37,191 nt of DNA, from IMG/VR virus record IMGVR_UViG_3300037047_000120, positions 1-37,191 of that record; one strand, given 5' to 3'. The position numbers and the translations under genes are program-made. The notes beneath the pieces were generated by a model that had not been told where the DNA came from, searched no databases, and saw only the letters and a list, made by a program, of their open reading frames with translations. Origin of the DNA: a virus (taxonomy: Duplodnaviria > Caudoviricetes). Below are positions 1 through 37,191 of this stretch, one piece after another. Position 1 is the first letter of the stretch, and every line of letters starts with the position of its first letter.

Positions 1-127
1 GGCGTCCCCGGAGCATTGCTCCCTGAAAACATAACACCCCCGATCACCTTCCACGTCACCATAACAAGGCGCCCCTATACCTTCCTCAAGAATTAATTTC
101 CTTCATCAACACCTTCCCATTTAAACT
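1..127 (+). repeat. Terminal direct repeat (identical to 37065-37191), probable assembly overlap
   Basis: Exact match read by eye, GGCGTCCCCGG...CCATTTAAACT; 127 is a common assembler k-mer; the integrase and peptidase ORFs run through it. Confidence 0.93.
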
Positions 128-928
128 GATGCACACCCAATGAGTCTTAATATGTGGCCCCCAAATGGATCCATCGGATCTCATAACTGCATCACCCGAA
201 AGGATGATCGTTTCTCCATTCGGGATATCCCCAACATCCATGGATTGTGTTGACGGATCCGGATATCGATCATTTACAAAATCACCAATAGGACTTAACT
301 TTGTCCCGGCCTTTGGCAATTCTTGCCCCCCTTCCTGAAGGCTGCTTGCGCTCTGGATGTTTTCTCCAGAGGGGATTGAGGGGGATTCACTTCCTTGCGC
401 CGGGTTTCCCGTGGACCCAAACACCACAATCCCATAAATTGCCTCGGCTGCTGTCTTCCCCTTCCCAAACCGTCCCAGCAATGTGACTGCCCCAGTATTC
501 TCATTCAATGGCCACGGGTCCAGGATCAGGTAATCATCTCCCGCCTGGCGCTCCAGTACAACCCAGTGATCCTGCACTCCAGACATTTCTGGATCATAAT
601 CCACCAACGCTACAACGATCCTTCCGGCGGCAATATAAGCATTGATCTTCTCGATCGGCGCGGCCACGGTCGGACAGTCTACCCGGTCAATATATTGCAT
701 TCCTGGAACTGCCGCCGATAATACGGAAAGTCCTATCCATGAGCCATAGAAACCGCCGTCCGTTGCTTTGAATTTCTCGTTTATAGTGGCTGGCGTTTCG
801 GAATAACCTTTAGCCTGGCAAGCCATCGCCAGGCATGTCAATAAACACCCGGCGCTGCCTATCGTTTCTTTTCCATGGCCAAGTAGAAAATTTTTCCAGC
901 GTGCGTCCTGCTGTGAAAACCGAATCAT
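86..928 (-). CDS. Peptidase C39-like (papain-fold) protein with probable C-terminal SH3-like cell-wall-binding region; putative endolysin
   Basis: FSQQD, TIGSAGCLLTCLAM (Cys), QDHWVVL (His), ILDPW (Asp); ATG at 928 with AAGGGAGAG RBS; last gene of the late operon. Confidence 0.7.
   Translation of the reverse strand: MIRFSQQDARWKNFLLGHGKETIGSAGCLLTCLAMACQAKGYSETPATINEKFKATDGGFYGSWIGLSVLSAAVPGMQYIDRVDCPTVAAPIEKINAYIAAGRIVVALVDYDPEMSGVQDHWVVLERQAGDDYLILDPWPLNENTGAVTLLGRFGKGKTAAEAIYGIVVFGSTGNPAQGSESPSIPSGENIQSASSLQEGGQELPKAGTKLSPIGDFVNDRYPDPSTQSMDVGDIPNGETIILSGDAVMRSDGSIWGPHIKTHWVCISLNGKVLMKEINS
326..387 (+). repeat. REP-like element, family A (C-run/G-run/G-tail) with a hairpin in its loop, in-frame in the peptidase linker
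   Basis: CCCCCCTTCCTGAAG..CTCTGGA-TGTTTTC-TCCAGAG-GGGATTGAGGGGGATT; encodes ESPSIPSGENIQSASSLQEGG. Confidence 0.7.
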
Positions 929-962
929 AATCTCTCCCTTCAGAGCCAAGGCTAGTCTCTAT

Positions 963-7737: not shown

Positions 7738-8148
7738 TTAAACAAGGGTCGGCTGCCCGGTTATTTTCATCTTCACGCTGGCAGTCAATGCTCCATCAAC
7801 CGGCATCGCCGGTTCAAATCCAGTCACTAGCGCATCAAATGACCAGGTAGTATGTCCCACATCTGGAAAAACAATCGAAAATGTGGTCGCGGCTCGTGCC
7901 ACCAGGTCACCAATCAAACCCGCGGCTGCGTTCTTGTGCGTGGCATTGGCCGGATCATAAACAATATCCAGGGTGATTTCACCGCTGCGCAAAATCGTAC
8001 CTACAACTTCTTCCCAGCCGCCCGTACTATCATGACTGGTTACATCTTCCGTATCCAGGCTCAAACCCGGTCCGGCGATATTTGAAACCTGTGCGATCGC
8101 TGTTGATCCTCTTTTGATCACAGTACCAAATGCTGCATTTTTTGCCAT
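7738..8148 (-). CDS. Major tail (tube) protein, short paralogue
   Basis: SNIAGPGLSLDTEDVTSHDS..GEITLDIVYDP..VKMKITGQPTLV, lambda gpV-like. Confidence 0.88.
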   Translation of the reverse strand: MAKNAAFGTVIKRGSTAIAQVSNIAGPGLSLDTEDVTSHDSTGGWEEVVGTILRSGEITLDIVYDPANATHKNAAAGLIGDLVARAATTFSIVFPDVGHTTWSFDALVTGFEPAMPVDGALTASVKMKITGQPTLV

Positions 8149-8192
8149 TTATTACCTCTCTTTCTTCTGTCCCTATCGGTGGATAATTTCTA

Positions 8193-8245
8193 CCCTCACC
8201 ATTCGATTTTGAATGGGGAGGGGCTAAACAAGGGCCTGCCCTTGT
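8193..8245 (+). repeat. Composite REP-like element, paralogue of 7657-7733
   Basis: CCCTCACCATTC-GATTTT-GAATGGGGAGGGG followed by ACAAGGGC-CT-GCCCTTGT. Confidence 0.7.
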
Positions 8246-8249
8246 TGTC

Positions 8250-9017
8250 TTAAACAAGGGTCGGCTGCCCGGATATTTTCATCTTCACTGCCGCGGTTAG
8301 AGCTCCATCAACAGGTGCACTGGGCTCGCACCCGGTGACATACGCTGCGAACGCCCATTCGGTATTTGCGGTGTCCGGAAAGATAATTTTGAAGTTTGTA
8401 AGGAGTTTGTTTTCCATCTTGAAAACCAATCCGCTGGAACTGTTATGCGTTGCGGCTACCGGATCCAAAACAACATCCAGACTGATTTCTCCGCTGCGTA
8501 AGATGGTCGGAACGACATCCTCCCAACCAGCGGTGCTGTCATGCGTGGTCACGTCTTCCGTATCCAATCCCAGAGATGGACCCCCGATATTGGTGATACT
8601 GCCAATAGCCGTGAAAACCTCCGAGGCCCCACCTGCAGTTGTATCCGCGCTGGTCGCCCCTGGGGTCAAACCTGCGCAGGTATCGTTGGTATACGCAATA
8701 TTCAAGTTGGCTATATTGGCAGCCGCGATCTTACGGGTCAACGTGACAGTCGCCCCTACGCCTCCAACGAAGAACATCGCCGCCACTGCGGCATTGGCTT
8801 CCAATGCTGCGATTGCTTTCTTTGCAACCTGCTCGGGAGTGTCATCATCCAGAACTGCAACAGAAATTGCCAGCGGACTCCCTGCCAGTCCAGTCGCAGT
8901 TATAGTGAATGTGGCATTCCCTGATGTTGTGATTGTCCCGACAATGCTTGCTGTTTCTACCTGCAGGGTTCCGTTCCCCATTTGTAGCTGAGTTCCGAAC
9001 GCGGAATCTTTTGCCAT
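8250..9017 (-). CDS. Major tail (tube) protein, long paralogue with ~120-aa inserted domain
   Basis: Same N-terminus (MAKxxAFGT) and C-terminal core as 7738-8148, plus an internal insertion. Confidence 0.85.
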   Translation of the reverse strand: MAKDSAFGTQLQMGNGTLQVETASIVGTITTSGNATFTITATGLAGSPLAISVAVLDDDTPEQVAKKAIAALEANAAVAAMFFVGGVGATVTLTRKIAAANIANLNIAYTNDTCAGLTPGATSADTTAGGASEVFTAIGSITNIGGPSLGLDTEDVTTHDSTAGWEDVVPTILRSGEISLDVVLDPVAATHNSSSGLVFKMENKLLTNFKIIFPDTANTEWAFAAYVTGCEPSAPVDGALTAAVKMKISGQPTLV

Positions 9018-26440: not shown

Positions 26441-26674
26441 TCATTGCCGCGTCCCGAGTAAGGGCAAATCTGCCTGTGCGCTGAGAATGCGGCTGACAAC
26501 TTCTTCCAGATCCTGATCTGCAGGGTCCAGAAGCCTGTGCTGATTGGTTACATTGGCTGCCAGGCGAACCCGCTCACGGGCCATCCCAATAAGTACTACG
26601 CAGTTTCCCAGTTTACCCAGGCATCGTTCCTGAACATCCCTGGTCGTATCTGCTGCCTTACAAAGTCTGCTCAT
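26441..26674 (-). CDS. Hypothetical protein
   Basis: ATGA-coupled in the early operon. Confidence 0.55.
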   Translation of the reverse strand: MSRLCKAADTTRDVQERCLGKLGNCVVLIGMARERVRLAANVTNQHRLLDPADQDLEEVVSRILSAQADLPLLGTRQ

Positions 26675-27145: not shown

Positions 27146-28204
27146 CTATCCAAGTCCTTCCGGGGTGGCGTATGACCAGACCTCAACCCCTTCCACCTTG
27201 TCAGATCGCAAACAAACCCGGCCGCAAAGAATTTCAACATCCTTGTGGTTGACCGTGTCTATTTCGACCATATAAACCCCGATCACATATCCCGGACGGT
27301 ATTTGGTGATCTTTCCCTGGTAGATCAGGCTGTACCAGCCAGCCTCATCCGGAACGGAAGCAGTAGCATACACATGCCTGGTCTTGAACTCAGCCTCCGT
27401 TGCCGTCGCCGCCATCTCCATGGCTATTTCCAACTTGTAAACGGTGAACGGTTTGAATAAAGCCGCCGCCTCCATTTCCAGCCGCTTTTCCTCGCTGACA
27501 GCCAAGGCTGAATACCTTTCCTCGGCTTCTTTCTTCTTGGCAATTGAGGCGAGTTCCAGTGTTCTTCGCACAGCCGCCGCCTTCCAGCGTTCTGTATGTT
27601 CCGGGTTGGACGCGATCAACCCCCTCAGGTATTTATTCAATGTGTGCGAATCGTCGCACTCTTTGAATCCATCCTCCATGGTAAATAAAGCATTTTGTCT
27701 GACCCTTTCCTCCTGGCGTTTTTCCGCCAGTTTTCGCTTATCAATGTGGATGATCATCTTCAGCAAGAACTTGCCGATCTCCTCCTCATCGGTGGGGATT
27801 GCTTTTTCGACATATTCACCCTTGCCCGTATTCGGGATATCGCTGATCAATTTCAAATATTCGACGATCTTATTTCCATAGATGTCCAAAATTCCCAATT
27901 TGATCCAGGCTCCCGCGATCGGCCGAACCTTCCAGGCAAGCCCCCATGGCCCACTGGTGACAATTCCTTCACAGCCGTGCCACCGAAAGGACTGGCTGTA
28001 TTCAATCCCGCCATTCCAGTTGATCGTGTAGACTGGCTCGTCCATGTCTTCAATTTCGTTCACCATCGACCCCAGCCAGGTCATCACATTGGTTTCAAAT
28101 TGATTGAGCCCTGCTGTTGCAACCGCCTCTCTAACTTTGCTGATCTCATCGGCTTCGCGGTTTGCCAGATCGACATATTTCTGTACTAACGGACTATTGA
28201 GCAT
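27146..28204 (-). CDS. Hypothetical protein
   Basis: 352-aa ORF with GGAGG RBS; no motif recognised. Confidence 0.7.
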   Translation of the reverse strand: MLNSPLVQKYVDLANREADEISKVREAVATAGLNQFETNVMTWLGSMVNEIEDMDEPVYTINWNGGIEYSQSFRWHGCEGIVTSGPWGLAWKVRPIAGAWIKLGILDIYGNKIVEYLKLISDIPNTGKGEYVEKAIPTDEEEIGKFLLKMIIHIDKRKLAEKRQEERVRQNALFTMEDGFKECDDSHTLNKYLRGLIASNPEHTERWKAAAVRRTLELASIAKKKEAEERYSALAVSEEKRLEMEAAALFKPFTVYKLEIAMEMAATATEAEFKTRHVYATASVPDEAGWYSLIYQGKITKYRPGYVIGVYMVEIDTVNHKDVEILCGRVCLRSDKVEGVEVWSYATPEGLG

Positions 28205-28421
28205 GTTTCACCTCCGCATTCGTATCCACATTGAGAAAAACGTGAACTTTGTTGGGATCATCCCTGTCCTGAATTCTGTCCGACCATTCAACGACCTGCC
28301 CAAGCGCGGGCAGCACATCATTGATCATGCTTGCCGCCCTGTCTACCATTTCTGGCGTACCTTTGATCCGCACACTCAGCCGATGCCTCATCATTTCTTC
28401 GCGAGTCCTATATCTGGCCAT
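28194..28421 (-). CDS. Hypothetical protein
   Basis: GAGGAG RBS; overlaps the next gene. Confidence 0.6.
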   Translation of the reverse strand: MARYRTREEMMRHRLSVRIKGTPEMVDRAASMINDVLPALGQVVEWSDRIQDRDDPNKVHVFLNVDTNAEVKHAQ

Positions 28422-29062: not shown

Positions 29063-30073
29063 TCACCTTACCTTTCCTATCGCCACACCCTCAACCGCCC
29101 GTTCCAGATCGTCCCAACCCGGTTTGGCATACCCGGCAGTGGTACTGAATTTGGCGTGCCCGGCAACAAATTGCACCGCGATCGGATCCATCCCCGCGTC
29201 CAACATCCTCTTAATCGCCGTGTGGCGAAAGCGGTGGGGAGTGAGATCTTCAACCTGGGCTTCGCGGCCAACATCCCCCACAATGTTCTGTATCTGGCGT
29301 GGCGAGATCGGAAATAAATAACCTTCTGCCTTGTCCCCCTTCTCGAAGGGGGATATAGGGGGATTCAAATAGGGCTTCAATGCCTCCCTGGCTTCCAGGC
29401 TCAGCGGGACGTTGCGCAGTTTTTGTCCTTTGCCATGAACAACGGCTTTGCCTTTGCGCTCTGAGATCGTGATATCCGTGTAACGCAGGGCGACAACCTC
29501 ACCCTCGCGCAGGGCGGCAAACAGCATCAACCCCGCCATGGCCACATTACGGCGGGCATCGTCTCTTTGTTGGGCGGTGTTGGCGTGGTCCACTGCGTGT
29601 TCCATCCAGCGGATCACCCGCCCGTATTCAATGGCATCCAGCCAGCGAGGCGGGAGCGAGACCGCCTCTGCTGACTGTAACCCGCGCGTGGGGTCATGGG
29701 AGATCGCCCCGATTACGCGCGCGTATTGGCAATAAACAGACAGGCTGGCTTTGCGCCGGTTCCAGGTGGATGGCGAACGCTGTTCCCGGTTAAGCGTGTG
29801 ATCACGCCAGGTGCGCAGATCATGTGAGGTCAATTTCTCAGGGGTGAAATCTTCTCCGTAATAATTGGCAAACCACATCTCGTACTGGTGAAAATCAGAA
29901 AGATAAGCCTGGATTGTTTTGCGAGAAGAACCCTGCTCTGAAAGCCACTCACCGAACCCATCACTTCCCCCCTTTTCTATAGAGGGAATGAGGGGGAATT
30001 TTTGAAGGATAACTGTATCCCCCGAGTCGATGGCACTGGTGGGGATGGGGAGATTTTTCATTTCAGTTATCAT
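29063..30073 (-). CDS. XerC/D-like tyrosine recombinase
   Basis: N-terminal SAM-like region (TIQAYLSDF); catalytic R (ALREGE), K (GKGQK), HRFRH, GH and Y all present. Confidence 0.92.
   Translation of the reverse strand: MITEMKNLPIPTSAIDSGDTVILQKFPLIPSIEKGGSDGFGEWLSEQGSSRKTIQAYLSDFHQYEMWFANYYGEDFTPEKLTSHDLRTWRDHTLNREQRSPSTWNRRKASLSVYCQYARVIGAISHDPTRGLQSAEAVSLPPRWLDAIEYGRVIRWMEHAVDHANTAQQRDDARRNVAMAGLMLFAALREGEVVALRYTDITISERKGKAVVHGKGQKLRNVPLSLEAREALKPYLNPPISPFEKGDKAEGYLFPISPRQIQNIVGDVGREAQVEDLTPHRFRHTAIKRMLDAGMDPIAVQFVAGHAKFSTTAGYAKPGWDDLERAVEGVAIGKVR
29334..29365 (+). repeat. REP-like element, family A, in-frame within the recombinase catalytic domain
   Basis: TCCCCCTTC-TC-GAAGGGGGA-TATAGGGGGATT; encodes NPPISPFEKGD. 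Confidence 0.8.
29966..30053 (+). repeat. Two family A elements in-frame in the recombinase N-terminal extension
   Basis: TCCCCCCTTTTCTATAGAGGGAATGAGGGGGAA and TCCCCCGAGTCGATGGCACTGGTGGGGATGGGGAGA. Confidence 0.7.
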
Positions 30074-30435
30074 TTCCCCACCTCACTTTGCCCCCCTTGG
30101 GAAAGGGGGGATTCGGGGGGGATTCCCTTGGTATCAACAAATTGATTGAATATTTCCCATCGAAGGGCCTCATTTACATCAGGTGATTGGAAAAGGATCC
30201 CCGCGCGAATTAATCGCCGCGCCACAAAGATCGCCTGTCCAAACTCCATGTTCCCCATCCCTAGATGCTCACGGAAAACACTCATATCCGCGCGCTGGAT
30301 TTTTGCCAATACAAGGATCGCCTTCGCCTGGCGTTTAACCCGCAGTCCTTCATCCTGGGTGCGCCCTGCCAGTTTGCACAGGTTCAAGGCTTCATCAACC
30401 ACCTTCATGCGTTCAACCGGTGAAATGGCTTTCAT
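30070..30435 (-). CDS. Hypothetical protein
   Basis: ATGA-coupled on both sides. Confidence 0.65.
   Translation of the reverse strand: MKAISPVERMKVVDEALNLCKLAGRTQDEGLRVKRQAKAILVLAKIQRADMSVFREHLGMGNMEFGQAIFVARRLIRAGILFQSPDVNEALRWEIFNQFVDTKGIPPESPLSQGGQSEVGK
30091..30124 (+). repeat. REP-like element, family A, in-frame at a gene end
   Basis: CCCCCCTT-GGGA-AAGGGGGG-ATTCGGGGGGGATT; encodes IPPESPLSQGG. Confidence 0.8.
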
Positions 30436-30797
30436 TTCTGCCCCCCTTGAAGAAGTGGGGTTGGGGGGATTTTGTCTGAGCCATTTATTGCCCCATCCAA
30501 AATCGAAAACTGTTCGGATGTCCAGTAATATCGATACCCGTCACGTGTTCGCTGCCCTGAAAGACCCATTTCTCGCAGTAACCGTCCAACTGCCTGGGCA
30601 GAAATTACTTCACCCGTTCTGACAGTCAATGCCGATGCCAGATCTTGCACGATCACGCTGGCAACTTCATTTACGTCCATTTCCATCACATTCCGCATGC
30701 AGGCCAGCAACTCACGCGCCTCTTCCCGCACACCCGGTAATACCGGTGAGGCAGCGATCACTGCTGCCAGCGTTTGTTTATCCAATAGCTCGTTCAT
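30432..30797 (-). CDS. Stand-alone winged-helix protein resembling the primase C-terminal domain
   Basis: VIVQDL..ISAQAVGRLLREMGL..QRTRDGY versus primase IKVGDL..LTPQGTGHKLRNDMQL..KRQRDGY. Confidence 0.65.
   Translation of the reverse strand: MNELLDKQTLAAVIAASPVLPGVREEARELLACMRNVMEMDVNEVASVIVQDLASALTVRTGEVISAQAVGRLLREMGLSGQRTRDGYRYYWTSEQFSILDGAINGSDKIPPTPLLQGGQK
30441..30471 (+). repeat. REP-like element, family A, in-frame at a gene end
   Basis: CCCCCCTT-GAAG-AAGTGGGG-TTGGGGGGATT; encodes IPPTPLLQGG. Confidence 0.8.
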
Positions 30798-32524: not shown

Positions 32525-33028
32525 ATGGCTATGTGTAAGTTATGCGAGAAAAAAGGTATATTTTTTGCTGTTAACTCAATTGGATTATGTTCAAAATGCT
32601 ATCCAATTTATATGATAGAAACAAACCGTCCAAAGGTAATTTTACAAGAATCTCTCCAACTTATGGCGACTTCTAATAACATCGATGTCGTATATTCAAG
32701 ATTTGATGAGGCCATTCGAAACTTGAATTTCCTTTTACCTTTCGAACTTAAGGGAATTAAAACAATTGAATTAGCTCCTTCGGCAGTGATCAACACATTG
32801 AAAGAGGATAGGTTTAATATTATTTATGACGCAGCCGAAAGAGACTGGGAAAATGTTAAGAAAAACGTAGAAACTTTGAAAACAGTCAAAGGGAAAATCG
32901 CACGTTTAGAAAAGTTCAGACAAAAGATTGAGGGGATTAAAGAAAAGTATGAATTTCCAACCTCACTTGACTACATAATAGATAAATCTAAGAAACTTGA
33001 AGACCAGATTACAAATCAAAATTCATGA
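32525..33028 (+). CDS. Hypothetical protein with N-terminal CxxC..CxxC
   Basis: CKLC..CSKC; AT-rich; AAGGAGG RBS. Confidence 0.7.
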   Translation: MAMCKLCEKKGIFFAVNSIGLCSKCYPIYMIETNRPKVILQESLQLMATSNNIDVVYSRFDEAIRNLNFLLPFELKGIKTIELAPSAVINTLKEDRFNIIYDAAERDWENVKKNVETLKTVKGKIARLEKFRQKIEGIKEKYEFPTSLDYIIDKSKKLEDQITNQNS

Positions 33029-34620
33029 CCAACACCCTCTACTACGGCGACAACCTGGAAATCCTCCGGGAATACATCAAAGACGAATCGGTTGATCTGA
33101 TCTACCTCGATCCGCCCTTCAATTCGAACGCCAACTACAACGTCCTCTTTGCCGAACATTCCGGCGGCAAATCCTCAGCCCAGATCCAGGCCTTTGAAGA
33201 CACCTGGGAATGGGGACCCGATTCAGATGCCGCCTTTCGCGAAGTCGTAGAACGCGGCGGGCAGGTCAGCCTCGCCCTGCAAGCCTTCAGGCAATTGCTC
33301 GGCAACTCCAACATGATGGCATACCTCGCCATGATGGCACCGCGCCTCGTCGAACTGCACCGCGTCCTCAAACCCACCGGCAGCCTGTATTTGCACTGCG
33401 ACCCCACAGCCAGCCACTATCTGAAAATCCTTCTCGATGCAATATTTGGTGGAATTTGTTTTACAAACGAAATTATTTGGATTAGGTCATTACCTCACGG
33501 AAATGCTTTTAAACGATTCGGAAGTTCGCATGATGTTTTACTTTTTTATAAAAAAAACCAAAACGGAACTTGGAATGGATCTTTTATCCCTCATCGTCAA
33601 CAATATTTAGAACAGTTTTATAAATATTTTGAGCCAGATGGAAGAAGATATCGATTAATATCATGCATTAACCCTAATCCGAATCGCCCAAATTTAACAT
33701 ACGAATGGAATGGTGTCACAAAAGTTTGGAAATATACGAAACATCGAATGCAAAGAATGCATGATGAAGGTTTATTAGTCTATTCAAAATCAGGTACTCC
33801 ATCTTATAAAGGATACCTAGATAACATGCAGGGAACTTCAACTCAGGATGTTTGGGTGGATATTCCGCCTTTAATGGGGTCTGCAACCGAGCGCCTTGGC
33901 TACCCTACCCAGAAACCCCAGGCACTCCTCGAACGCATCATCAATGCTTCCTCCAATCCCGGCGATATTGTTCTCGATCCCTTTTGCGGCTGCGGCACAG
34001 CCGTAGCCGCCGCTCAGGCGCTTAACCGTCAATGGCTCGGCATCGATATAACCCAGCTGGCTATCGCTCTCATCAAAGACCGCCTTGCCACCTCTGCCCC
34101 CGATGCCAAATACCAGGTCATCGGCGAACCAACCACCGAAGAAGAAGCCCGTACCCTTGCCGCCCAAGATCCCTACCAGTTCCAGTGGTGGGCGCTCTCA
34201 CTCGTTGGCGCGCGTCCTGTCGAAAAGAAAAAAGGCGCCGATCAGGGCATCGATGGCCGCTTATTCTTCCACTTCGACAACAGCGACGAAACCCACCAGG
34301 TCATCTTCTCCGTCAAAGCGGGCAACCTCAACCCCGGTTACGTCCGCGATCTGCATGGCGTTATCGACCGCGAAAACGCCGAAATGGGCGTCCTGCTCAC
34401 CTTCAACCCGCCCACAAAACCCATGCTCAACGAAGCCCTTGATGCCGGTTATTACAAAACCGCCTGGGGAGATCACCCCCGGCTGCAAATCCTCACCGTC
34501 GGAGAGCTCCTTGCCGGCAAAAAGATCGACATGCCACCCATCCATAGAACAGGCAACGCCACCCTTAAAAAAGCCCCCCGGCAAAAGCCATCAACGGGGC
34601 AGGGGAAGCTCGAATTATAA
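33025..34620 (+). CDS. Beta-class N6A/N4C DNA methyltransferase with C-terminal Mrr-like domain
   Basis: IYLDPPF precedes LDPFCGCGT; YPTQKP; C-terminal DQGIDG..SVKAG. Confidence 0.92.
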   Translation: MTNTLYYGDNLEILREYIKDESVDLIYLDPPFNSNANYNVLFAEHSGGKSSAQIQAFEDTWEWGPDSDAAFREVVERGGQVSLALQAFRQLLGNSNMMAYLAMMAPRLVELHRVLKPTGSLYLHCDPTASHYLKILLDAIFGGICFTNEIIWIRSLPHGNAFKRFGSSHDVLLFYKKNQNGTWNGSFIPHRQQYLEQFYKYFEPDGRRYRLISCINPNPNRPNLTYEWNGVTKVWKYTKHRMQRMHDEGLLVYSKSGTPSYKGYLDNMQGTSTQDVWVDIPPLMGSATERLGYPTQKPQALLERIINASSNPGDIVLDPFCGCGTAVAAAQALNRQWLGIDITQLAIALIKDRLATSAPDAKYQVIGEPTTEEEARTLAAQDPYQFQWWALSLVGARPVEKKKGADQGIDGRLFFHFDNSDETHQVIFSVKAGNLNPGYVRDLHGVIDRENAEMGVLLTFNPPTKPMLNEALDAGYYKTAWGDHPRLQILTVGELLAGKKIDMPPIHRTGNATLKKAPRQKPSTGQGKLEL

Positions 34621-34627
34621 AAACTAA

Positions 34628-35395
34628 ATGACTTTCCCATCACCCACTTCTAAGCAGCCAGGCAGAAAACTGGAAATATTTTGTGATGAAAGCCGCCAGA
34701 CAAATTCCAGATACATGGTTTTAGGTGGGGTTATTACGTTTTCTGAATTGATTGATAATCTCGAATATCAGTTTTCCGTCTATAGAGAAGCTTTAGGTAT
34801 GTTTGCTGAGTTGAAATGGACTAAAGTATCCTGGCAAAAACTGGATGAATATAAAATATTTTTAGACATTTTTTTTGAAAACAGGAAAATCATTCTTTTC
34901 AAATCAATGGTTATTGATATGGTTGAGTTTGATAAGAAACGGTTTCATAATAACAATTCAGATTTAAGTTTTTATAAAATGATGTACCAGTTTTTATTAC
35001 ATTCCTTTGGTCGGTATCTTCGGGCTGGAGACGAAGTAATAATCCATCTCGACGAGCGGGTGAATACAGGTTACAAACTATCAACATTATGTGCCATTCT
35101 CAATAATGGCCTACACAAAAAATATTCATACCTTGATCATCCAATCCGAAGTATTCAAGCCATCGATTCAAAGAAAAGCAATTTGATGCAATTGGCCGAT
35201 ATATTAATGGGCGCAATCGGATACGAATGGAATGGTAACCATAAATCATCTCATCCGAAACAATCAAAAATTGATCTTGCAAATTACATAAAACTAATGG
35301 TTGGACTCAATTCTCTTGCAAGGGATACTTCAATCACATCTAAACACTTTTCTATTTGGAAAATAGATTTTTCTAAATCCAAGAAGAATAAATAA
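34628..35395 (+). CDS. DUF3800-family protein (predicted RNase H-like fold)
   Basis: IFCDES, ELKW, IHLDE, DSKKSNLMQLADILMGA. Confidence 0.82.
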   Translation: MTFPSPTSKQPGRKLEIFCDESRQTNSRYMVLGGVITFSELIDNLEYQFSVYREALGMFAELKWTKVSWQKLDEYKIFLDIFFENRKIILFKSMVIDMVEFDKKRFHNNNSDLSFYKMMYQFLLHSFGRYLRAGDEVIIHLDERVNTGYKLSTLCAILNNGLHKKYSYLDHPIRSIQAIDSKKSNLMQLADILMGAIGYEWNGNHKSSHPKQSKIDLANYIKLMVGLNSLARDTSITSKHFSIWKIDFSKSKKNK

Positions 35396-35528: not shown

Positions 35529-37160
35529 ATGCCATCAAATTCATCTTCTCCCTTTTCCCCTAATACCCGCGTCGCCGCCTACCTGCGCGATTCCGGCGGC
35601 GATGAGCAAGATCTCTCCATCACCCAGCAGGAAGAGGCTGTCCGCGCCTGGTGCAAATCAAACAGCATAATCCTGACCCGCATCTTCAAAGATGAAGCGC
35701 AGCCAGGCAGCTCCACCATCGGGCGCACTGCCTTCCAGGAAATGGTCCACTACTTTCATGGCGCCAACGTGCCGGAAGCCGGACTTATCGTCTGGAAATT
35801 CAGCCGCTTTGCCCGGGATCTCAACGATTCCAATTTCTATAAAGCGGATCTTCGCCGCCTCGGTAAGATCATCCATTCCCTCAATGATTCCATCCCTGAA
35901 GGACTGGATGGCCAGCTGATCGAGATGGCTATAGACTGGATGAGCGCCAAATACCTGGATGATCTCAAAACCGACGTAAAGCGCGGAGTACATCATTTGG
36001 TCGATCAATACGGGGCTCTGGGAGGCACTCCACCAGTAGGATTTATCCGTTCAGCGCTGGATTTAGGCCGCCGTCGTGATGGAAGCCCGCATGTCGTCCA
36101 TAAATGGGTGCCGGATCCGGAGAAATGGGAGATTTGCCGTCTAGCTTGGGAAATGCGCACAAGGGGCGCTTCTTATAAACAAATTCATGATGCCACCCAT
36201 CTTTACCGTACCAACTCATCCTACAGGGATTTTTTCACCAATCGCATCTACCTCGGAGAATTGAAATTCGGAGACCAGGTCATTTTGGATTATGCGCCAG
36301 CGCTGATCACCAGAGAAATGTGGGACAAAGTTCAACAGATCGGTCAAAGCCGTTCCCACCAATCTGATGCGAATTCATCACATGGCCGCATCTCATCCTT
36401 TAGATTAAGTGGATTATTGTTTTGCGCCATTTGCGGATCCCCCATGTATGGCTCGGTCATCAAATTCAATACCCGCAAAAGAGATAGGACAAGCTTTGGT
36501 TATTATGCGTGTACATTGCAAAATAGAACATCTGGCCGTGAATGCAATGCCAAAAGTATCCCGAAGATCCTCCTCGAAGAAGCCGTAATCCAAAAGATAT
36601 TTGATTATTTTCGGCGGAAAGATGTCATCCCCATTGCCATGGAAAACCTGAACAATCAAGATGAAATCCTTGCCATCGAATTAACCGCCTCAACCAGGAT
36701 CAAAGCCCAACAAGTCGCATCTCTGAAACGCCGGATCGGGAATGTATTGAATGCCATAGAGCTGCGCGGCTTAAGCGAAACGCTATCCCTGCGCCTGGAT
36801 GAATTGGAAGCCGAAAAGAAAAAGGTTGAGATGGAATCTCCTCCACCTCAACCGATCAAGAAAGTATATAACCTGGACAAAACATTGGAATTTCTGGAAA
36901 GGTTGGAGGGCAGGGTAATGAATATGCCTCCAACAGAAGCCAATGAATTTCTACGAGGCGTCATCAAAGGTGTCAATGTTCAACGGTTTGAAAAGGAAGT
37001 CATCGGCCGGGTAGAAATTGTTAAGTTTCCATTAGAAATCTCGGCTTCTGTTATGTCTGGGCATGGCGTCCCCGGAGCATTGCTCCCTGAAAACATAACA
37101 CCCCCGATCACCTTCCACGTCACCATAACAAGGCGCCCCTATACCTTCCTCAAGAATTAA
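35529..37160 (+). CDS. int: Large serine recombinase (integrase)
   Basis: AAYLRDS catalytic Ser, SRFAR, recombinase domain (NRIYLG), zinc ribbon (CAICG..YYAC..C), coiled coil. Confidence 0.95.
   Translation: MPSNSSSPFSPNTRVAAYLRDSGGDEQDLSITQQEEAVRAWCKSNSIILTRIFKDEAQPGSSTIGRTAFQEMVHYFHGANVPEAGLIVWKFSRFARDLNDSNFYKADLRRLGKIIHSLNDSIPEGLDGQLIEMAIDWMSAKYLDDLKTDVKRGVHHLVDQYGALGGTPPVGFIRSALDLGRRRDGSPHVVHKWVPDPEKWEICRLAWEMRTRGASYKQIHDATHLYRTNSSYRDFFTNRIYLGELKFGDQVILDYAPALITREMWDKVQQIGQSRSHQSDANSSHGRISSFRLSGLLFCAICGSPMYGSVIKFNTRKRDRTSFGYYACTLQNRTSGRECNAKSIPKILLEEAVIQKIFDYFRRKDVIPIAMENLNNQDEILAIELTASTRIKAQQVASLKRRIGNVLNAIELRGLSETLSLRLDELEAEKKKVEMESPPPQPIKKVYNLDKTLEFLERLEGRVMNMPPTEANEFLRGVIKGVNVQRFEKEVIGRVEIVKFPLEISASVMSGHGVPGALLPENITPPITFHVTITRRPYTFLKN
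37049..37100. other. Predicted attP (52 bp, central dinucleotide GG at 37074-37075)
   Basis: Terminal inverted repeat TGTTATGT/ACATAACA; left arm ends in TGGCGTCCCCGG, the reverse complement of a tRNA-like 3' end CCGGGGAC-G-CCA. Confidence 0.72.
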
Positions 37161-37191
37161 TTTCCTTCATCAACACCTTCCCATTTAAACT
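37065..37191 (+). repeat. Terminal direct repeat (identical to 1-127)
   Basis: Exact match. Confidence 0.93.

Follow-up and report, generated by a model that had tools for sequence, protein, structure and literature searches.

The window, that is, the whole stretch of 37,191 nucleotides analysed here, carries a large serine integrase gene whose 3' part overlaps a candidate attachment site, which raises the question of what such an enzyme becomes on integration and whether the residues exchanged at its C-terminus matter. A preliminary description had placed attP inside the integrase gene and the target at a tRNA 3' end. Based on the sequence, metagenomic assemblies, and a survey of related loci, it is highly probable that the site lies in the gene, that the junction falls at 37075 with a tRNA T-arm beyond it, and that the prophage form of the integrase is the one obtained by translation across the junction, all taken together.

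Phage genome and integrase

The window is a whole circular phage of 37,064 bp plus a 127-bp assembly repeat, and a Pfam scan identified genes for terminase, portal, capsid, head, long-tail, repressor, and primase functions together with two recombinases. Part of the region is contained in nine public runs, eight labelled groundwater and one coal metagenome, and X1 and X2 may be the runs of origin. Two neighbouring minus-strand genes (7738-9017) each match tail-tube families, and the plus-strand region between the repressor and the integrase (32525-35395) holds cargo, namely a 531-aa DNA methylase that ends in a restriction-endonuclease-like part and a DUF3800 protein. A loose end in run X3 at 35566 and protein P0002, which differs mainly at its N-terminus, suggest that the module upstream of the integrase is exchanged. 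A C39-peptidase-like gene (86-949, minus strand), which probably encodes a lysin, is convergent with the integrase gene and on the circle overlaps its last 11 bases (37150-37160); no plus-strand terminator was found at the integrase gene end. The second recombinase, of the tyrosine type, lies in the early operon (29063-30073, minus strand) and has relatives in 42 of 76 related virus loci.

The integrase product matches PF00239, PF07508, and PF13408 above the cut-off as well as PHROG 95, and among 51 window ORFs scanned it is the only one with a Resolvase match. Its catalytic Ser22 is invariant across 104 homologs. The order typical of large serine integrases is present: behind a Resolvase domain with the nucleophilic serine come the Recombinase and zinc-ribbon domains, with a coiled coil. 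An AlphaFold2 model matches the SPbeta, Bxb1, phiC31, and LI integrases in structure comparison, and by structure alignment the canonical fold ends at about residue 500-503 (SPbeta 533-537, phiC31 586-587, LI 452); both the circle and the prophage forms therefore keep the fold whole. Beyond a low-confidence linker (507-515), the model predicts a strand at 527-532, with block pLDDT values of 84 (521-530) and 72 (531-540). Two other assignments were rejected: protein P0123 is not the tail, and the tail is not the counterpart of the SprA directionality residue F532, since F532 corresponds by alignment to about residue 500, before the swapped part.

Table 1. Positions of the integrase gene, its attachment site, and related features in the window
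Feature	Position	Strand	Basis or remark
Large serine integrase gene, circle form, 543 aa	35529..37160	+	Resolvase, Recombinase, and zinc-ribbon domains with coiled coil
attP, 52 bp, within codons 507-524	37049..37100		Sequence, junction contig, family arm motif with 30-31-bp spacer
Left (P) outer arm	37049..37056	+	Inverted repeat; best though weak family-profile match, score 6.0
Right (P') outer arm	37093..37100	-	Inverted repeat; family arm profile
Crossover dinucleotide GG	37074..37075	+	tRNA positions 66/65, T-stem/acceptor-stem junction
11-bp core common with host	37065..37075	-	tRNA positions 65-75; base 37064 adds A76 and completes CCA
Exchangeable tail, residues 517-543	37077..37160	+	Circle only; beyond canonical fold
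Predicted beta-strand of tail, residues 527-532	37107..37124	+	AlphaFold2; family hydrophobic alternation
Assembly terminal repeat	1..127	+	Identical to 37065-37191; begins at first core base

Attachment site and crossover

The coordinates, 8-bp arms, GG centre, and codon of the preliminary description all hold in the sequence: the arms are perfect reverse complements, symmetric about the GG at 37074-37075, and this dinucleotide opens codon 516 of the 543-aa ORF. By analogy with LSR site architecture (PMC11722253), the left outer arm is likely a binding motif of the second DNA-binding domain (DBD2) and zinc ribbon. Nine perfect 8-bp inverted repeats with 30-42-bp spacers occur in the window, so that the repeat by itself is at chance level, and the tRNA-end-like 10-mer occurs once in the window. 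A naive inverted-repeat scan misplaced the site in the window and, in several relatives, picked out terminators; a motif profile was therefore used instead.

It is the assembly evidence that establishes the site. Eight runs were compared, and in one of them (X4) a short contig tracks the phage to 37075 and then continues with 19 foreign bases, another contig of the same run continuing as phage; the junction strain shows 5 differences from the window in the adjacent 491 bp. A contig of run X7 stops exactly at 37075, runs X1, X2, and X3 pass through the site as attP, X5 and X6 broke at other nearby places, and X8 had no coverage of the site. The symmetry centre, the last base shared by the X4 junction contig, and the X7 contig end are thus the same position. 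The 127-bp terminal repeat starts at 37065, the first core base, for which the chance expectation is about 11 in 37,064, and the 127-bp repeat of the relative L029 likewise begins at its own core. The shared and foreign bases sum to 30 (11 + 19), which is k-1 of the 31-mer junction contig, and together with the break at 37065 this gives an 11-bp core whose left edge is deduced. With this left edge, the host gene would lack the final A and end in G-C-C, a feature of several Anaerolineae Arg genes. An attL junction or a longer tRNA end was not found among the eight runs, of which X8 does not cover the site. The junction contig, the X7 end, and the break at 37065 bear out an attP inside the integrase gene with its crossover at 37074-37075.

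The site has the form of a large serine integrase attP, which is about 50 bp with inverted outer arms and a 2-bp crossover: it measures 52 bp and its centre is the junction. Large serine integrases recombine attP with attB unidirectionally, the reaction being reversed by an RDF, and the DBD2 motifs of attB lie about 5 bp closer to the centre than those of attP. For attB of this phage, 19 bases of one half are known and by eye have no clear arm motif. A 13-bp odd palindrome (37074-37086) starts at the crossover, in the P' half.

Probable target tRNA and host

When read on the minus strand, the 19 foreign bases and the core give, in order, the end of a variable loop, T-stem, T-loop, T-stem, acceptor strand, discriminator G, and CCA. 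All six exact matches to the 19 bases in viral_contigs fall at the T-arm of an ARAGORN-called tRNA, these being unrelated phage tRNAs (Asp, Ala, and His). As in tRNA-borne islands, the element carries a tRNA 3' fragment (positions 65-76) that would restore the gene, and the crossover lies in the T-stem region. The predicted tRNA 3'-end target, whose acceptor end would be restored, is upheld by this junction, which enters the T-arm.

The type of tRNA had been given as Glu, with Arg as the second choice, and here the preference shifts to Arg. Anaerolineae Glu genes at integrase ends have T66 and A73, and one Glu gene with C66 (L299) has another variable loop and A73. All 27 listed ARAGORN-called Anaerolineae tRNAs with a C66-GGG-x-x-C-[GA] acceptor end, the pattern by which they were pre-selected, are Arg, and among 12 called tRNAs at pattern matches with a four-base variable loop ending AGC, 11 are Arg(CCG) and one is Glu. 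Judging from these bases, tRNA-Arg(CCG) is quite likely the target; another tRNA-Arg would be improbable, and tRNA-Glu more improbable still.

Searches for the 19 bases in 5 and later in 401 Anaerolineae genomes (one mismatch allowed for the 401) were negative. The nearest match is a tRNA-Arg(CCT) in genome G240, with 3 differences over 30 known bases. Most of the close genome loci are Anaerolineae; other labels are attached to three of them, at 38-43% identity. An Anaerolineae bacterium is the likely host. Searches for the junction in assembled runs and genomes, a check proposed earlier, yielded one X4 contig with a tRNA T-arm and, in the 401 genomes, no exact tRNA.

Predicted exchange of the C-terminal tail on integration

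Because the crossover lies inside the integrase frame, integration would change the C-terminus, as expected of a gene that spans its own attP. Codon 516 stays Gly, and the junction then reads E-D-R-T-P-A. In Arg(CCG) proxies, 12 of 14 sequences stop after 17 residues in that frame, and the others after 3 and 27. By translation, the prophage form would comprise about 532 aa, in which residues 517-543 are replaced by about 16 residues encoded by antisense tRNA; the earlier expectation that the last 27 residues are exchanged agrees with the codon of the crossover and with the junction read into the tRNA.

Conservation of the tail among related integrases

For the family survey, 240 loci were fetched with alignment. 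A minus-strand tRNA stands at the gene end in 41 distinct integrated loci, and the ORF enters this tRNA in 40 of them. The tRNAs are of seven types (Ala 13, Glu 12, Arg 5, Val 5, Thr 3, Met 2, and Ile 1), and the prophage tails use all three frames (13/8/20) and measure 0-28 residues, about five of these rows being mis-anchored; their last residues vary.

The arm motif was sought in 106 complete loci that score above 200 bits and have no minus-strand tRNA at the end of the gene. A profile seeded from 22 hand-picked loci, mostly of the major frame, found the motif in 58 of the 106 loci (54 distinct, window included) vs none of 106 control windows, and missed 48, among them loci such as L011 and L013 that appear to use the minor frame. 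Arm spacers are 29-32 bp, mostly 31; the odd 31-bp spacing is found in 38 of 54 sites, the window having an even one, and it makes most half-sites asymmetric by one base about the 2-bp centre. A tRNA end (positions 66-73) is present at the centre in 43 of 54 sites (26 sense, 12 antisense, and 5 both), and its orientation changes 7 times on a quick tree, at least 3 of these changes being forced by strong branches.

The reading frame runs through the centre at 47 of the 54 sites and stops before it at 7, which occupy three separate places in the quick tree. One frame is used in 42 of the 47 read-through tails, a count that is probably too high given the hand-picked major-frame seed and the 48 of 106 loci missed, and this frame persists across 22 linker lengths at a median identity of 38%. 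With a spacer of 30 or 32 bp in place of 31, the frame ahead of it is shifted and that of the tail is preserved (8 cases). Hydrophobic residues occupy positions +9, +11, and +13 at frequencies of 0.95, 0.63, and 0.73, vs 0.34, 0.27, and 0.37 at the positions between. The VIFYW share is 0.42 in circle tails vs 0.19 in open alternative frames of the same DNA, and a length of 15-32 aa is found in 36 of 42 tails vs 16 of 41 of those frames (p 1e-5, on rows that are not independent), figures that overstate certainty because the family rows are related and the profile is hand-seeded. Unlike the open alternative frames, circle tails have alternating hydrophobics, a basic end, and a narrow length, and their last residues are mostly K, S, or R. 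A degron-like shared end was found in neither the circle nor the prophage tails of the family. The window belongs to a minor frame (3 of 47), so that its tail is not homologous residue by residue to that of the family; its product nevertheless ends in a strand and basic residues, and other minority-frame members also end in a hydrophobic strand.

Reconstruction of both forms was possible in 6 clear attL/attR pairs among 17 elements, in which the rebuilt circle tail is hydrophobic and absent from the integrated form. Both element ends could be located in 3 of 8 genome cases and in 3 of 9 virus records, three more virus records being circles. L082 has 26 circle vs 10 prophage residues and L009 about 25 vs 10, and the cores in the rebuilt pairs are as short as 12-14 bp. 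No partner att site was found within up to 60 kb for L144, L148, L151, L111, and L088, and both element ends were not resolved for L005, L015, and L036 in the att-pair search of virus records. Two family integrases (L088 and L081) stand in tandem at one tRNA-Glu in G001:C2:313301-351640, where an attL-like sequence lies at 314836 and an attP-like site at 316702 is intact. In the distant tRNA-Val-targeting relatives L200, L208, and L212, a stop codon lies at the crossover itself, and the distant relatives L137, L140, L152, and L191 have terminal extensions of 60-130 residues, some of which look helix-turn-helix-like by eye.

On this comparative evidence, the circle tail that is lost on integration is under selection in relatives, and the gained antisense-tRNA peptide is not conserved. 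The emphasis of the preliminary description on two isoforms is thus kept in part: the conserved element is the lost tail, with its predominant frame, and not the gained peptide, which differs in tRNA type, frame, and orientation.

Proposed function of the tail

The tail is probably functional, and it likely tunes the timing or direction of enzyme action. In the proposed mechanism, recombination at the GG would join the integrase gene to the host tRNA 3' end, restoring the tRNA and replacing the last 27 residues of the enzyme. The tail is predicted to dock as an extra beta-strand on DBD2, where, as a guess, it may occupy the sheet edge at which RDFs add a strand. The incoming phage enzyme would then ignore an RDF from the early operon and integrate, and the tail-less prophage enzyme would accept the RDF and excise. 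By logic, an incoming circle has only the long form at its disposal and has to integrate, and a prophage has only the short form and has to excise. Occupation of the DBD2 edge by the tail, giving a circle form that would be RDF-insensitive and biased to integration, is tentatively taken as the best explanation, and the underlying competition with the RDF for this edge may be regarded as possible though somewhat short of probable.

When the tail was paired with residues 288-505 (DBD2 fragment) in a two-chain prediction, the score was 0.58, the best control reaching 0.02, which lends weak support to docking. Of 157 solved complexes 116 reach the mark, as do 2 of 215 mismatches; among those that reach it, only 18 solved complexes and both mismatches score 0.60 or below. 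The runs agree in at least 86% of contacts and the partner pLDDT is at least 61; the placement of the strand on the RDF edge is by analogy. Verified RDFs are for the most part predicted to extend the DBD2 sheet by one strand (PMC12286644), and binding of the SPbeta RDF involves DBD2 and the hinge of the coiled coil (PMC11722253). Taken with the docking score, these properties of RDFs tentatively favour blocking of the edge over a switch in activity or neutrality.

An RDF gene was not recognisable in the window, as noted earlier, no family match being found among its ORFs in Pfam or PHROG. Since RDFs have no alignable sequence in common (PMC12286644) and three small conserved early genes are candidates, this carries little weight. 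The candidates, all on the minus strand and without a Pfam or PHROG function, are 28194-28421, 26441-26674, and 30432-30797, with family matches in 19, 29, and 15 of 76 related virus loci, respectively. Blocking of the RDF edge has the difficulty that RDF-proof enzyme produced once the phage has excised could integrate it again if the promoter is not off. The tail is also dispensable in some integrases, as 7 of 54 sites are tail-less and the LI integrase ends right after the hairpin. In a more general and rather doubtful version, a detachable beta-strand may serve as directionality control, in that the tail would plug the RDF site to give a dedicated integrase and integration would delete the plug to give an excision-ready form; at the extreme, the prophage form would need no RDF at all.

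The first rival, somewhat unlikely, is that the strand of the tail makes DBD2 more stable or increases activity or half-life, leaving the prophage with a weaker or shorter-lived enzyme; direction would be set by an ordinary RDF. The evidence for selection on the family tails fits this equally well, the integrated form of the Mx8 integrase is reported as less active (PMC4701971, citing Magrini 1999), and the same idea was proposed for DsiB (PMC3146451). Less would be gained by it, because serine integrases are described as already locked on attL/attR without RDF (PMC11722253); in addition, the canonical fold is complete without the tail and neither form has a shared degron-like end.

Neutral read-through, in which attP drifted into the gene end and the tail is tolerated filler exchanged without regulatory effect, is unlikely. 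It accords with the tail-less relatives, the forced orientation flips (at least 3), and the minor frame of the window, AT-rich DNA favours F, I, and Y codons, and DsiB ends are described as divergent (PMC3146451). A single frame over 22 linker lengths and across spacer changes speaks against it, as do the alternation and narrow length missing from open alternative frames and the hydrophobic strand of minority-frame members.

That the gained antisense-tRNA peptide is itself a functional element, such as a degron or a built-in excision factor, is very unlikely: such a peptide occurs in 40 of 41 antisense-type integrated loci, but it comes from seven tRNA types in three frames with 0-28 residues, a few rows being mis-anchored, and 26 of 54 circle sites, for example L020, face the other way, so that the tail of their prophage form is encoded downstream of the tRNA. 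Cutting of the site by the tyrosine recombinase instead of the serine integrase is scarcely credible, since, although that enzyme is present here and in 42 of 76 related virus loci and tyrosine integrases are the usual tRNA-targeting enzymes (PMC4383910), the site is a palindrome of 52 bp that has outer arms and, at the core edge, a 2-bp centre, cores are as short as 12-14 bp in rebuilt pairs, and throughout the family the site goes with the end of the serine integrase gene.

Comparison with known systems

The window integrase resembles SPbeta SprA, LI/A118, Bxb1, and phiC31 in domain set, fold, and an attP of about 50 bp with outer arms. In LI/A118, Bxb1, and phiC31, attP lies outside the integrase gene. 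Phage Mx8 targets a tRNA, as does the small serine recombinase of phiRSM phages. The SPbeta attP is also outside the integrase gene (PMC8270828), unlike that of the window. Tail swapping itself is already in print for DsiB (PMC3146451), rumA integrases (PMC4701971), and Mx8.

DsiB is the ssrA-specific integrase of Dehalococcoides, whose gene always overlaps its own att site at the 3' end according to McMurdie 2011 (PMC3146451), where it is suggested that only the circle form may be fully functional. Like DsiB, the window enzyme is a large serine recombinase of about 540 aa, probably also of Chloroflexota, with an att overlap at the gene 3' end, and both target the tRNA-like 3' end of an RNA gene that is read antisense. 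In contrast, the target here is a tRNA (T-arm and Arg-type acceptor end) rather than tmRNA/ssrA, and tailed-phage head, tail, terminase, and portal genes replace the dsiA small serine recombinase, recF, parB, and mom of DsiB islands. The DsiB ends are given as divergent in that report, which describes no conserved tail, and the likeness drawn here is one of description. The window element is not a DsiB island; its gene layout works like that of the DsiB and rumA integrases.

The single serine integrases of streptococcal ICEs that target rumA have an att site inside the gene as well, integration alters the length and sequence of their C-terminus, and a functional difference between the forms was suggested (Ambroset 2016, PMC4701971). 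They differ in targeting a protein gene, with reciprocal 3'-end exchange, and in belonging to conjugative elements of Firmicutes. Myxococcus phage Mx8 likewise carries attP inside int, and its IntP/IntX swap of 112 for 13 residues gives a less active enzyme (PMC4701971, PMC4383910); unlike this tyrosine recombinase, the window integrase is altered beyond the canonical fold, with 27 residues removed. The Mx8 and SSV integrase genes are described as crossing attP (PMC4383910). In the same 2015 source, serine integrases were stated as not known to target tRNA genes, and the window differs from tRNA-targeting islands with a tyrosine integrase (Islander, site class J) in its serine integrase. No description of a tRNA-targeting serine-integrase clade with a conserved swapped tail was found in the literature consulted (including PMC12884075, PMC13626063, and PMC10083194, the main text of which does not contain the word "tRNA"), and LSR tables, TIGER/Islander, or ProBord Fig. 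3J may list such pairs.

Significance

A standard island finder assigned tRNA 3' ends to tyrosine integrases only (PMC4383910), so that prophages of this kind can be missed, and integrases cloned from prophages of this clade represent the truncated form. If the tail is neutral, the locus would be one more case of the pattern known from the DsiB and rumA integrases. The exact attP/attB pair comes with two natural integrase forms that differ by one short strand, and these two forms offer a direct probe of directionality in an enzyme class used for genome engineering.
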